Shown here: positions 16,082 to 19,915 of the stretch, in pieces
Position numbering within the stretch: the first letter of the stretch is position 1
Layout of the letters: each line of letters begins with the position of its first letter
Assembly (NCBI GenBank): GCA_964423425.1
Contig: CAYRES010000001.1
Location: 298,191 to 362,190 of the forward strand
DNA from: an uncultured Gaiellales bacterium
GTDB lineage: Bacteria > Actinomycetota > Thermoleophilia > RBG-16-64-13
DNA length: 64,000 nt
Direction of reading: 5' to 3'
The notes under the pieces: model-generated
Database searches by the model: none
What the model saw: the letters and a program-made list of their open reading frames with translations, nothing else
What the model was told of the DNA's origin: nothing
Program-made: the position numbers and the translations under genes

Positions 16082-16609
16082 ATGTCCGATACCACGCACA
16101 TCAGTCTGGACCTACGCGGTACTCTGCTCACTCCCGGCCAGCGCCTCGAACGCTCCTTCGAGATGGAAGTGGAGCCGATCTGTGTCGGCGGCCAGATCTA
16201 CGAGGCACTCGTGGAAGAAGGGTCCGCCCGCGTGAAGGTGGAGAGGGTCTCCGGAGGGTACTTGGTGACTGTTGACCTGCGGGCCGCCCTGTACGGTCCC
16301 TGCGTCCGCTGTCTCGACGAGGTCAAGGTGGCGGTCGACGCAGAGCAGCAGGAGTTCGTCCCCGTCGAGTCCGAGAAGTGGAAGGGTACCGAGGTCTCGG
16401 AGTTCGTGAACGATCTCGTGGTGGATCTGTCCGGCCTCTCCCGTGAAGCACTCATCCTCGCGCTTCCCGCGAAACTTCTCTGTGCGGAGGACTGCGTTGG
16501 CCTCTGCCCGCAGTGTGGCAGGCGGCAGGGCCACCCGGAGTGTTCCTGCTCGAAGGACGCGGTCGACCCTCGCTTCGAGAAACTGCGCCACCTCTCCATC
16601 GAACCTTGA
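16082..16609 (+). CDS. yceD: YceD/DUF177 family protein
   Basis: Conserved CVRCL...CPQCG cysteine pairs, and position immediately upstream of rpmF. Confidence 0.8.
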   Translation: MSDTTHISLDLRGTLLTPGQRLERSFEMEVEPICVGGQIYEALVEEGSARVKVERVSGGYLVTVDLRAALYGPCVRCLDEVKVAVDAEQQEFVPVESEKWKGTEVSEFVNDLVVDLSGLSREALILALPAKLLCAEDCVGLCPQCGRRQGHPECSCSKDAVDPRFEKLRHLSIEP

Positions 16610-16693: not shown

Positions 16694-16873
16694 TTGGCCG
16701 TTCCCAAGAAGAAGACGTCCCAGTCGAGGAGAAACAAGAGGCGGGCGACACACCGGGTGTTCGCGCCGGGCATCGTGGAGTGTGCTCAGTGCCATTCACC
16801 CAAACTGCCTCACCGCATCTGCCCGAACTGTGGGGTGTACGCCGGTCGCCAGGTGGTTGAGATCGAGGAGTAG
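16694..16873 (+). CDS. rpmF: 50S ribosomal protein L32
   Basis: TTG start after SD GAGGAG. The protein (M)AVPKKKTSQSRRNKRRATHR...CAQCHSPKLPHRICPNCGVYAGRQVVEIEE has 59 aa. It is not in the ORF track and was found by reading the DNA. Confidence 0.8.
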   Translation: MAVPKKKTSQSRRNKRRATHRVFAPGIVECAQCHSPKLPHRICPNCGVYAGRQVVEIEE

Positions 16874-17273: not shown

Positions 17274-17522
17274 ATGCAGATCATAGTTCAAGAGGGCAGG
17301 GCCATAGTCAGCCTGCGCTTCCCCATCCAGGCCCACGACGACGCGCTTCGCACCACCTCCATAAACGAGATCACTGATACGGTCAAGGCATACTACCGCG
17401 ATCATGAGCTCATCCGGGTGGAGATGAAGGAGGGCACCATCGACGTGGTTCCGTCGGCCATTTCCGGTGTGTTCTGGATCGAGAAGGGGCGGCGGTATCA
17501 GCTCAAGGTCACCGGTGGTTGA
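17274..17522 (+). CDS. hypothetical 82-aa protein
   Basis: ATG follows GGAAGGGTAG. Beta-rich sequence with no recognised family. Confidence 0.45.
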   Translation: MQIIVQEGRAIVSLRFPIQAHDDALRTTSINEITDTVKAYYRDHELIRVEMKEGTIDVVPSAISGVFWIEKGRRYQLKVTGG

Positions 17523-17640
17523 CGGAGAAGCGCCTCAGGCGTTGCCCCTCCCCCTACGAATAACACGCCCACTGGGCTACAATGATTGACTCCATGCTGG
17601 GCGTGTCATATCCGGTTCACAAGGTATCGTGAGCATGGCT

Positions 17641-17671
17641 GCCGTCGCCTGAGTGACGGCGTTTTTGTTGG
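17641..17671 (+). terminator. terminator-like hairpin plus U-tract in the EF-G-paralog leader
   Basis: GCCGTC-gcctgagt-GACGGC followed by GTTTTTGTTGG. It lies 70 nt upstream of the EF-G-like start and 120 nt downstream of the previous gene. Confidence 0.45.
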
Positions 17672-17740
17672 AGAAGGAAGGTGCACGGTGGGCGGGCGCT
17701 CCAGTCCGCGGCCGGCCCGGACGAATCTGAGGAGGATTCG

Positions 17741-19828
17741 ATGTCGCTCTTTGACCCGGCGAGAATTCGTAATGTCGCTGTTGTAGGCCACCGCGGGGCC
17801 GGGAAGACGTCGCTCATCGAGGCTCTCCTTTTCACGAGTGGGGCCAAGAACCGTCTGGGTCACGTCGTTGACGGCACCACGGTCATGGATTACGACGATG
17901 ACGAGATCAGACGGCAGATGACCATCTCGGCGGGCTTGGCCCACGTGGAGTGGAACAAGACCAAGGTCAACCTGGTCGACACCCCTGGAGAGGCGTCCTT
18001 CATCAACGACTCGCTTGCGAGCCTCGGGGTGGTCGATGCGGCGCTCATGGTGGTGAACGCCGTCACCGGGGTCGAGGTACAGACCGAGAGGGTGTGGAAG
18101 AAGGCCTCCGAGCTGGGCATAGGGTGCATGGTCGCCCTCAATATGATGGACAGGGAGCGCGCCCATTTCGACGAGGCCTTGGCCTCTCTGCGCGACAGGC
18201 TTGACCCGGCGGTTGTCCCCCTCCAGATCCCCATCGGCCAGGAAGAAGGCTTTCGGGGAGTCGTCGACCTTCTCGAGATGAAGGCCTACGTGTACACGGA
18301 TGACTCCGGCAAGGCACAGCGGGAGGACATCCCGGGCGACCTCACTGAGGCTGCCGAGAAGGCGAGGGAGGAGTTGATCGAGGCGGTAGCCGAAGTCGAC
18401 GACGCTCTCATCGAGAAGTACCTCGAGGGTGAGGAGATCTCCCTCGAGGAGCTGGCGGCAGCGCTGCGGAGCGGAGTGCGTGATCGGATGCTCTTCCCCC
18501 TCGCACTGATCTCGTCCACAAAGAACATCGGCACCGACAGGCTGCTCGAGGCGACGGTCGGCGCAGTACCTTCTCCCGCCGACATGGGACCGCGGAGGGT
18601 GTCTTCGGGTGATGGTTCCGAAGAAGTGGATGTTCTACCCGATCCAGGGGAACCATCGTCTCTGGTCGTCTTCAAGACTCTGTACGACCAATTCTCTGGG
18701 CGCATCAACCTCGTCCGCATTTTCTCGGGCCGCATAGGCACCGACACCCATCTCGTCAATGCCCGCAACGGTGAGCGTGAGCGCACTGGCAACATCTTGG
18801 TGGTGCAGGGGAAGGAGACCAAGGGGTTGGATGAAGCCGGAGCGGGCGATATGGTTGCTCTCGCGAAACTCAAAGATACCGGCACGGGCGACACCCTGAG
18901 CGACGCCTCGCGTCCCGTGAGGTTCCGTCCCCACGAGTTCCCCCCTCCGGCGATCTCTTTCGCTCTCGAGCCCAAGAACAAGGGCGACGAGGAGAAGGTG
19001 TCGGGGGCGCTTCGCCGCCTCTCCGAGGAAGATCCGGCCATGCAGCTTCGTTTCGATCAACAGACCAAGGAGATGATCATCTCCGGCACGAGCCAGGTGC
19101 AGGTCGAGGTCATACTCGAGAAGATGCAGCGCCGCTTCGGTGTGGAGGTCAACCTCAAGCCCCCGCAGGTGCCCTACCGGGAAACCATACAGCGCTCAGC
19201 CAAAGCCCAGGGCAGGCACAAGAAACAGACGGGCGGCCGCGGGCAGTTCGGAGATTGCTGGATCGAGATCTCTCCCGCCAGCCGTGGAGAGGGCTACTCG
19301 TTCGAGGATGCCATCTTCGGAGGATCCATCCCTCGCAACTTCATCCCCGCTGTGGAGAAGGGCATCGTCGAGGCCATGGAGCGCGGTGTGGTGGCCGGAT
19401 ATCCGGTGGTTGACGTCAAAGTGAAGCTCTACGACGGCTCCTACCACACGGTCGACTCCTCTGAGCTCGCTTTCAAGTTGGCCGGTGCACTGGCCCTGAA
19501 CAAAGCCATGGAAGCTGCCTCTCCGGTGCTCTTGGAGCCGGTCATGAACGTCGAGGTCATCGTGCCCGAGGAGAACCTGGGTGACATCATGGGCGACTTG
19601 TCGAGCCGGCGGGGCAGACCGCAGGGCAGTGAGAGCATGGGGGAGATGAACATCATTCGGGCGCAGGTACCCTTGGCCGAGATGCTCACCTATGCCCCGC
19701 AGCTTCGTTCCATGACCGGAGGTAGGGGTTCGTTCACGCTTGAGTTCGACCACTACGAGGAAGTACCCGCGCACATGGTGGAGAAGATCGTTCAGGAAGC
19801 GAAGGCCCGGGAGAGCGCTGAGGGGTAG
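17741..19828 (+). CDS. elongation factor G family GTPase (divergent paralog)
   Basis: G1 GHRGAGKTS, and EF-G domain II-V architecture is recognisable throughout. ATG follows SD GAGGAGG. Switch II reads DTPGE rather than DxPGH, and G4 reads NMMD rather than NKMD. Confidence 0.85.
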   Translation: MSLFDPARIRNVAVVGHRGAGKTSLIEALLFTSGAKNRLGHVVDGTTVMDYDDDEIRRQMTISAGLAHVEWNKTKVNLVDTPGEASFINDSLASLGVVDAALMVVNAVTGVEVQTERVWKKASELGIGCMVALNMMDRERAHFDEALASLRDRLDPAVVPLQIPIGQEEGFRGVVDLLEMKAYVYTDDSGKAQREDIPGDLTEAAEKAREELIEAVAEVDDALIEKYLEGEEISLEELAAALRSGVRDRMLFPLALISSTKNIGTDRLLEATVGAVPSPADMGPRRVSSGDGSEEVDVLPDPGEPSSLVVFKTLYDQFSGRINLVRIFSGRIGTDTHLVNARNGERERTGNILVVQGKETKGLDEAGAGDMVALAKLKDTGTGDTLSDASRPVRFRPHEFPPPAISFALEPKNKGDEEKVSGALRRLSEEDPAMQLRFDQQTKEMIISGTSQVQVEVILEKMQRRFGVEVNLKPPQVPYRETIQRSAKAQGRHKKQTGGRGQFGDCWIEISPASRGEGYSFEDAIFGGSIPRNFIPAVEKGIVEAMERGVVAGYPVVDVKVKLYDGSYHTVDSSELAFKLAGALALNKAMEAASPVLLEPVMNVEVIVPEENLGDIMGDLSSRRGRPQGSESMGEMNIIRAQVPLAEMLTYAPQLRSMTGGRGSFTLEFDHYEEVPAHMVEKIVQEAKARESAEG

Positions 19829-19870
19829 GGAGTACCAGAGCGGCGATACACGGGTGGAGAAGGAAAGTAG

Positions 19871-19915
19871 GTGGCGGCCCTCGCCGGAAGGCGAGGGCCG
19901 CCACCATTCTTTGTG
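19871..19915 (+). terminator. intrinsic terminator after the EF-G paralog
   Basis: Perfect 15-bp stem GTGGCGGCCCTCGCC-GGAA-GGCGAGGGCCGCCAC followed by CATTCTTTGTG. Confidence 0.6.

Follow-up and report, generated by a model that had tools for sequence, protein, structure and literature searches.

Control of a gene by premature termination of transcription in its leader is a familiar kind of bacterial regulation, and the gene studied here, which encodes an elongation factor G (EF-G) paralog of the EFG II / EF-G2 type, is probably throttled in this way, in a version that is undescribed. The gene and the 218-nucleotide (nt) spacer in front of it, which contains a terminator-like hairpin, lie in a 64,000-nt stretch of DNA from an uncultured Gaiellales bacterium (contig CAYRES010000001.1, positions 298,191 to 362,190), called here the window. 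The E. coli pyrBI leader is a coupling attenuator, in which the leader open reading frame (ORF) reaches up to or through the terminator and the trailing ribosome blocks the hairpin, with no elaborate antiterminator; pyrBI senses UTP via pausing of the polymerase at U-runs. In rplL-rpoB, a partial terminator is located between the cistrons of a ribosomal-protein gene and a downstream transcription gene. The mycobacterial attenuators with an upstream ORF (uORF), which are leaderless or have short leaders, mostly use Rho or amino-acid-specific codon runs, and the mycobacterial RNA polymerase terminates at terminators made of a hairpin plus a U-tract.

By analogy, the closest described case for an EF-G-superfamily gene is the tet(M) leader of Tn916. 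This leader is reported to have a terminator in its 5' untranslated region, to yield short transcripts that end there and to allow read-through on induction; the part played by its putative leader peptide is disputed (10.1101/2021.03.24.436905). In the mycobacterial cases, premature termination is tied to translated uORFs (for context, 10.1101/2022.06.01.494293). Naville and Gautheret predicted attenuators directly upstream of fusA in streptococci and also deal with rpsL/fusA leaders (PMC2965389). EFG II/EF-G2 paralogs are widespread and their regulation is largely unknown; a promoter-proximal terminator in the path of every transcript of such a gene would give a testable control point for the timing of its expression.

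Hairpin and U-tract of the leader

The spacer (17523-17740) is bounded by the stop codon of an 82-amino-acid ORF (ORF82) on one side and the ATG of the EF-G-like gene at 17741 on the other. Its main elements and the gene are the following:

17575-17583, plus strand: probable promoter -10 element GGC-TACAAT (TACAAT at 17578-17583), recognized by alignment with relatives
17640-17661, plus strand: intrinsic-terminator-type hairpin with nine pairs and a CUGA loop, from a terminator scan
17662-17671, plus strand: U-tract TTTTTGTTGG, which abuts the stem, with TTTTT from 17662
17741-19828, plus strand: EF-G-like gene of the EFG II / EF-G2 type, 695 amino acids, from NCBIfam matches and G motifs

The reading proposed from the sequence is that the spacer holds the promoter and 5' leader of the EF-G2-type gene and that the hairpin acts as an attenuator, possibly a ribosome-dependent one, with a probability of about 0.5.

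The hairpin begins 100 nt 5' of the ATG. The original prediction, which was made from the letters of the sequence, had described a GCCGTC/GACGGC hairpin followed by the T-tract; both are present, the stem extends to nine pairs, and the structure stands above chance. The arms (17640-17648 and 17653-17661) form six G-C, one A-U and two G-U pairs, which include the GCCGTC/GACGGC core. Both marks of an intrinsic terminator are found, namely a G+C-rich stem of about 5-14 bp with a short loop and a U-tract that adjoins the 3' side of the stem. In a stringent scan of both strands of the 64 kb, which asked for at least eight perfect pairs, at least five of them G-C, and TTTT within 1 nt, this hairpin is the sole match on either strand, and simulated sequences give a mean of 0.45 matches per 64 kb. 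The local fold of the hairpin region has -17 kcal/mol and a z-score of -2.6. The whole 218-nt leader folds no better than its shuffles (z = -0.8), which leads to the rejection of the leader as a single structured RNA.

The hairpin might be no terminator in vivo, being either a 5'-proximal stem-loop for stabilisation or processing, or a chance stem in a lineage-specific insertion. About one third of the simulated 64-kb sequences yield one such site somewhere, as this explanation would have it. Against it, the scaled simulation rate gives a probability of about 0.001 that one falls on the sense strand of this particular spacer of 218 nt, and the U5 directly 3' of the stem is the signature of a terminator. 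This explanation, to which the relatives described below also speak, is very unlikely.

Promoter and read-through

In the alignment of the window with the orthologous loci L163, L164, L166, L168 and L081, T.GG.TA.AAT is the sole invariant block of the spacer apart from the ribosome-binding site (RBS) and the start codon, and for this reason TACAAT at 17578-17583 is very probably the -10 element of the EF-G-like gene's own promoter. Shared between the window and its nearest relatives, the block has the form GGCTA(C/G)AAT; in the relatives it is conserved as GGCTAGAAT, and the spacers of L163, L164/165, L166/167, L168-170 and L081 contain (C)GGCTAGAATAC. GGCTASAAT occurs once in the window. From the usual -10 spacing, we infer a start site near 17588-17591, which would place the hairpin some 50 nt downstream of the 5' end of the RNA.

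Between the hairpin and the ATG, the segment 17662-17740 has no TA dinucleotide at all, hence no TANNNT, and a promoter in this place is rejected. The earlier remark that the last 70 nt have no recognisable promoter is thereby confirmed and made stronger. The terminator thus comes after the promoter and before the start codon, and no other promoter follows it, as in a leader-peptide attenuator. Since no promoter lies 3' of the hairpin, all EF-G2 transcripts must pass it. The first proposal, transcription of the gene through a terminator-like structure, therefore holds: the sole promoter-like element is upstream and conserved, none is downstream, and similar hairpins recur in about two thirds of the orthologous loci. 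On the minus strand, 17609..17582 has a promoter-like match (ATGACA, 16 nt, AATCAT), which faces away from EF-G2 and is probably a chance match.

A strong -10 element and a strong terminator about 80 nt apart could also mark the ends of a small RNA in its own right, some 83 nt long (about 17589-17671), with EF-G2 read-through as a secondary event, and the tet(M) leader makes discrete short transcripts that were first catalogued as a small RNA (10.1101/2021.03.24.436905). This explanation is improbable, because no EF-G2 promoter follows the terminator, which makes the two units inseparable, the segment is unconserved in the nearest relatives, and it has no Rfam match.

The promoter is flanked by a 9-bp inverted repeat:

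17563-17571, plus strand: 5' arm ACACGCCCA, upstream of the predicted start site
17598-17606, plus strand: 3' arm TGGGCGTGT, within the predicted transcript

The arms are 26 nt apart, and TACAAT lies within this spacing, as was described at the outset. Their interpretation as a hairpin of the leader RNA is rejected. Simulations give 12.8 +/- 4 inverted repeats that are perfect over 9 bp or more and have spacers of 3-40 nt, and the window has 23, so the repeat is near chance frequency; its 5' arm comes before the predicted start site and would be outside the mRNA; and the repeat is not seen in the relatives. The repeat may be either a product of chance or a site that works at the DNA level.

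Short reading frames of the leader

Two short ORFs precede or overlap the hairpin:

17594-17632, plus strand: candidate leader ORF MLGVSYPVHKVS*, 12 codons, from an ORF scan, with an alternative in-frame ATG at 17582
17635-17652, plus strand: mini-ORF MAAVA* (ATG GCT GCC GTC GCC TGA), which overlaps the 5' arm and the loop of the hairpin

The mini-ORF MAAVA is the one that had been pointed out in the original prediction. It is present, and it does not hold as a functional RNA feature: nothing like it is conserved in the 33 orthologous leaders, and a five-codon ORF is, by our estimate, expected by chance in a leader with three ATGs and frequent stop codons. MAAVA is accordingly rejected as a leader peptide. 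The ORF 17594-17632 is a better candidate; 7 nt separate its stop codon (17630-17632) from the first paired base of the hairpin. Its sequence is not conserved, and the relatives have short ORFs in an equivalent position. None of these ORFs, whether begun at 17594, 17582 or 17635, has a good Shine-Dalgarno sequence or is conserved in sequence.

In the fold of 17589-17651, GGGCGUG (17599-17605), within the 3' arm of the inverted repeat, pairs with CG.UCGCCU, which includes the 5' arm of the terminator (-19 kcal/mol, z = -0.18). This is the only alternative pairing in the window and is not better than in shuffled sequence. A mutually exclusive pair of antiterminator and terminator was not found there, and direct occlusion of the hairpin by a ribosome at the stop codon could still operate.

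Further 3', positions 17669-17683 hold a purine tract GGAGAAGGAAGG and then GTG at 17681, which is in frame with EF-G2 (an extension of 20 codons) and unconserved in relatives. This GTG could be an alternative EF-G2 start.

Leaders of orthologous genes

The comparison covers 33 distinct orthologous loci (numbered with L), nearly all of which keep rpmF and/or the 82-amino-acid ORF directly upstream. The identical protein is read on 23 contigs, which reduce to two places, both with an identical leader. After these, the next relatives have 69-74% EF-G identity and belong to uncultured Thermoleophilia and other Actinomycetota; the collections searched contain none closer than 74%. The most similar EF-G proteins (73-74%) are those of L163, L164/165, L166/167 and L168-170, whose loci, like the window, have RpiR and PdxS genes downstream.

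The hairpin is absent from 11 loci: these four closest lineages and L081, which have the promoter only, L009, L011 and L088-L090, which have short spacers of about 50-60 nt, and L082, which has an unrelated stem. In the hairpin-less leaders of L164 (1379-1500), L166 (1079-1200) and L168 (1036-1200), direct repeats are present (CCCTGATTCAA, or CCTTGAYACAACC), as well as a short ORF M-A-x-x-D-S/T-T-L that begins 9 nt after the -10 element.

A terminator-like hairpin is present in the other loci, about 22 of 33. Its form is GGGACGC(U/C)GCC - loop - GGC(G/A)GCGUCCC with a U-rich tail, which has a mean of 5.25 T per 10 nt versus 18% T in the window. It starts 58-115 nt, mostly 88-105 nt, 5' of the ATG. 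Of the stem cells, 91-92% are paired; compensatory changes are seen at five of the 12 pairs, and nearly invariant positions prevail. With a covariance model, the motif is found at the EF-G2 leader position only in 798 kb of loci, and not in EF-G homologs of about 50% identity from other phyla. The window's own hairpin sequence is unique within the window, and a repeated element is thus rejected. A second model recovered held-out members (L173 with 76 bits, L171 with 63, L172 with 21 and L085 with 16). Rfam 15 gives nothing relevant on the window leader at E <= 10, and the relatives' leaders have no match at the gathering score or at E <= 1. The conserved motif, which matches no described RNA family in Rfam, is a candidate cis-regulatory element; it is a locus-specific hairpin, perhaps tied to a short ORF, upstream of EF-G2 genes in many uncultured Actinomycetota.

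These relatives also complete the case of the stabilising or chance stem. The absence of the hairpin from the nearest relatives agrees with that explanation. In L085, TAGAAT precedes the homologous hairpin by just 10 nt; this hairpin would be at the extreme 5' end of its transcript, where stabilising stems are found. Against the explanation, two thirds of the relatives have an analogous element, placed about as far from the start codon as in the window.

Upstream of the hairpin, the leaders with the motif have one of three layouts, namely types A and B and that of L085 with its nearby TAGAAT. Those of type A, in 17 loci, have a linear box ATG/GTG ... AAGGAUCG ... CGGCAUUG ... GACA, which in most of them begins at a fixed 67-69 nt before the hairpin. 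Those of type B have, in this order, a strong -10 element (TACAAT, TAGAAT or TATCAT), about 100 nt, an RBS GAGGUGA, 8 nt, a short ORF M-G-R-x-S-V-G-N/S with synonymous codon changes, and the conserved hairpin.

L001, L003-L008, L012, L013, L019, L024, L083, L084, L086, L091 and L171-L173 (e.g. L005:938-1043): box, hairpin GGGACGCUGCC...GGCGGCGUCCC and U-rich tail
L002:1690-1815, L010:3815-3935 and L087:2320-2441: type B leaders

In type A leaders, a conserved GCCTNAGGC-like palindrome with a stop codon lies 14-17 nt before the EF-G2 ATG (e.g. L005:1074-1082), just 5' of the RBS.

Read by eye, a good -10 match between hairpin and ATG occurs only in L001, L091 and L024 among the relatives, and most of their genes would thus also be read through the hairpin. 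Their short ORF ends 1-13 nt short of the hairpin in L008, L013, L010, L087 and L172, and in others it continues through the stem. Of 18 sequences, 15 have the frame with the box open all the way from the conserved start up to the hairpin, against seven and five for the other sense frames. The invariant CGGCAUUG and GACA cross codon borders, and the frame through the hairpin varies between loci. RNAalifold gives no consensus structure for the relatives except the terminator; a small stem around CAUUGSAU is rejected, being paired in only 42% of cells, and in truncated folds of 18 relatives the 5' arm pairs with differing partners.

This conservation bears on whether the leader is a riboswitch or a protein-binding leader, in which a ligand or a protein, e.g. 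EF-G2, a ribosomal protein or the ORF82 product, sets the read-through. The stem and the 5' box (CGGCAUUG ... GACA) of the relatives are conserved as nucleotides across codon borders, and an AUU codon, which is rare, is invariant in a G+C-rich setting and would suit a binding site. The Rfam searches of window and relatives, the consensus that holds the terminator only and the poorly paired small stem speak against it, as does the window leader, which lacks the 5' box and has only about 50 nt before the hairpin. Such a binding leader is quite improbable, and of the regulated leader first proposed, as attenuation or as something riboswitch-like, only attenuation stands, as a conditional claim.

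A rather different explanation is a constitutive, partly leaky terminator or insulator, which would end the yceD-rpmF-ORF82 transcripts and keep EF-G2 at a fixed low ratio to the upstream products, with no signal-dependent switch. The hairpin would then belong to an ordinary operon architecture. In type A relatives, ORF82 and the hairpin are too close for a promoter to fit in, and the hairpin is hence intercistronic in them; no conserved alternative structure was found; and the hairpin has been lost repeatedly, or the genes joined with a 58-nt spacer, as would be the case for a tuning device. The explanation has some weight and is still unlikely, as the window has a conserved promoter between ORF82 and the hairpin, so that EF-G2-specific transcripts also meet the terminator, and the stem of the relatives is over-conserved for a plain terminator, with three pairs invariant and several near-invariant at about 70% EF-G identity.

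Proposed mechanism of the leader

In the attenuator reading, transcription would start about 6-8 nt after TACAAT (17578-17583), and about 50 nt on the polymerase would meet the 9-bp stem 17640-17661 with its U5. With no promoter 3' of the terminator, each EF-G2 transcript must read through it, and the hairpin would act as a premature-termination checkpoint, which limits the transcripts that reach the coding region. This role is proposed because the promoter is conserved, the terminator is canonical and no further promoter is found before the EFG II gene. The likeliest modulator, as a speculation, would be a ribosome on the ORF 17594-17632, which could also begin at 17582 in transcripts coming in from the rpmF cluster. 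A ribosome finishing this ORF, with the stop codon 7 nt from the stem, might cover the 5' arm and block the hairpin. Read-through would then depend on how closely translation trails transcription, and the response might go in either direction. Occlusion of this coupling type would explain the lack of a conserved antiterminator.

Several results weigh against this attenuator reading. The candidate leader ORF has no Shine-Dalgarno sequence and would begin about 5 nt from the predicted 5' end, and neither the folds of the window nor the truncated folds of 18 relatives gave a significant or conserved antiterminator. The four closest lineages have the promoter and the same flanking genes and no hairpin; in the alignment with these nearest relatives, the hairpin of the window falls within a stretch of about 85 nt that is unique to the window. 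In the relatives with the motif, the coding signal of the short ORF is equivocal: the variability at the three codon positions is 0.23/0.39/0.39, and in 10-12 of the 18 sequences the reverse frames, too, stay open. Homology of the window leader to the family is not demonstrable, since a model built without the window scores its leader with 1.9 bits (E = 0.48 within 601 nt) and pairwise local alignments to 22 family leaders reach only z <= 2.6. In a search of the full window that model has no match. The patches CCGGTTCACAAGGTATCGT, compared with CCCGTTCGCAAGGATCGT of L083, and CGGCGTTTTT, shared with L007, are suggestive and not significant.

In position and form, the window hairpin agrees with the family, since it lies between ORF82/rpmF and the EF-G2 ATG, 100 nt before the ATG, and has a U-rich tail. 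The family is therefore a strong analogy, and homology of the window hairpin to it is possible and unproven. The original prediction had named a fold and covariance comparison with orthologous leaders as its check and leaders lacking the structure as its refutation. This comparison gives an analogous hairpin in about two thirds of the loci and does not support homology in the window; the refutation is half realized, as the structure is missing from the four closest lineages and a terminator-like hairpin is present in about 22 of 33 loci.

A bolder and doubtful extension of the attenuator reading takes the short-ORF-plus-terminator module of the Thermoleophilia-like clade, which would be the conserved hairpin motif in the relatives and a remodelled version of it in the window, as a sensor of translocation or ribosome-recycling capacity. 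During EF-G shortage, a ribosome would linger at the end of the leader ORF and mask the terminator, and a GTPase-deficient paralog would be switched on. If true, the module would define a new class of leader, absent from Rfam, by which a translation factor regulates itself.

The EF-G-like protein

The protein matches two NCBIfam models for elongation factor G, NF009381 (916 bits) and TIGR00484 (725 bits), and the models of tet-protection proteins score far below their cutoff on it. Its G motifs (residues 16-23, 57-62 and 80-84) are G1 GHRGAGKT, G2 RQMTI instead of RGITI, and G3 DTPGE instead of DTPGH. The N-terminal 154 residues have their best match in the 9k0z chain (DTPGY), and Thermus EF-G-2, 1wdt (DAPGY), is in fourth place; these alignments also contain canonical EF-G chains, with AHIDAGKT, RGITI and DTPGH. 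According to Margus et al., members of the EFG II subfamily keep GhxxxGKT and have a relaxed G2 motif (PMC3150367), which is the pattern found here, with RGITI relaxed to RQMTI. Since this pattern defines EFG II, the motifs support the label of EF-G paralog that was given to the gene at first sight. The loss of the catalytic His (DTPGE for DTPGH), along with GHRGAGKT and RQMTI, suggests that this EFG II paralog has altered GTPase activity or none. The EFG II class is reported to be conditionally expressed in Bacteroides (PMC6989115).

Neighbouring genes and other features

Upstream of the spacer is a cluster of yceD (16082-16609), rpmF (16694-16873) and a Zn-ribbon ORF. Other features of the locus are:

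17274-17522, plus strand: ORF82, from the ORF list, final gene of the yceD-rpmF-Zn-ribbon ORF cluster
17680-17718, plus strand: second G+C-rich hairpin, between terminator and RBS, from the fold of 17672-17745 (z = -1.3)
17722-17740, plus strand: 7-bp hairpin from the fold, with the Shine-Dalgarno sequence GAGGAGG (17729-17735) partly in its loop

ORF82 has no Pfam or NCBIfam match. Its homologs, which end with ..RRYQLK.., are directly 5' of the EF-G-like gene in nearly all relatives, and ORF82 may be a functional partner of the EF-G2-type gene. Hairpins of variable sequence are seen by eye at the equivalent of 17680-17718 in several relatives, and the Shine-Dalgarno sequence and the ATG of the EF-G-like gene are kept in all relatives.

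Right 3' of the ORF82 stop codon, a small hairpin AGCGCC-UCA-GGCGUU followed by a C-rich tract GCCCCTCCCCCT occupies 17529-17555, and it could be a separate end, without U-tract or of Rho type, for transcripts of the rpmF cluster. Directly 3' of the EF-G2 stop codon, a perfect G+C-rich hairpin of 16 bp (19870-19905), with T-runs interrupted on both strands, is probably the true 3' end of the EF-G2 gene and differs in style from the leader hairpin. Neither a tRNA nor a tmRNA was found by ARAGORN.

Comparison with known systems

The window leader and the motif of its relatives share the gene, the neighbours, the distance to the ATG, the G+C-rich stem with U-rich tail and the preceding short ORF. 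They differ in that the window lacks the CGGCAUUG ... GACA box and that the stem sequences are different at about half of the positions.

The leader resembles the coupling attenuator of pyrBI in that its ORF reaches to within 7 nt of the first paired base and in having no conserved alternative structure. Unlike pyrBI, no pause tract or metabolite logic is evident in this leader, and the leader ORF is only putative. The uORF attenuators of mycobacteria are actinobacterial too and are similar in that the ATG is 10 nt after the -10 element, near the predicted 5' end, and has no Shine-Dalgarno sequence; the ORF of the window differs from them by having no codon run, and its terminator is intrinsic.

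With rplL-rpoB and the rpsL/fusA leaders, the locus shares a partial terminator between ribosomal-protein genes and a translation or transcription gene. The rpsL/fusA leaders are part of the str operon (rpsL-rpsG-fusA), with S7 as their supposed binding partner, whereas here the neighbours are yceD-rpmF-ORF82 and the gene is an EFG II paralog; the attenuators of fusA leaders in the str operon context are unrelated to the leader of the window.

The tet(M) leader has no sequence similarity with the leader of the window, is inducible and belongs to mobile elements of Firmicutes and to antibiotic resistance, while the gene described here is a chromosomal EFG II paralog beside rpmF. As in tet(M) (Ptet / srn0030), a gene of the EF-G superfamily is found behind a leader with a Rho-independent terminator and a putative short ORF.

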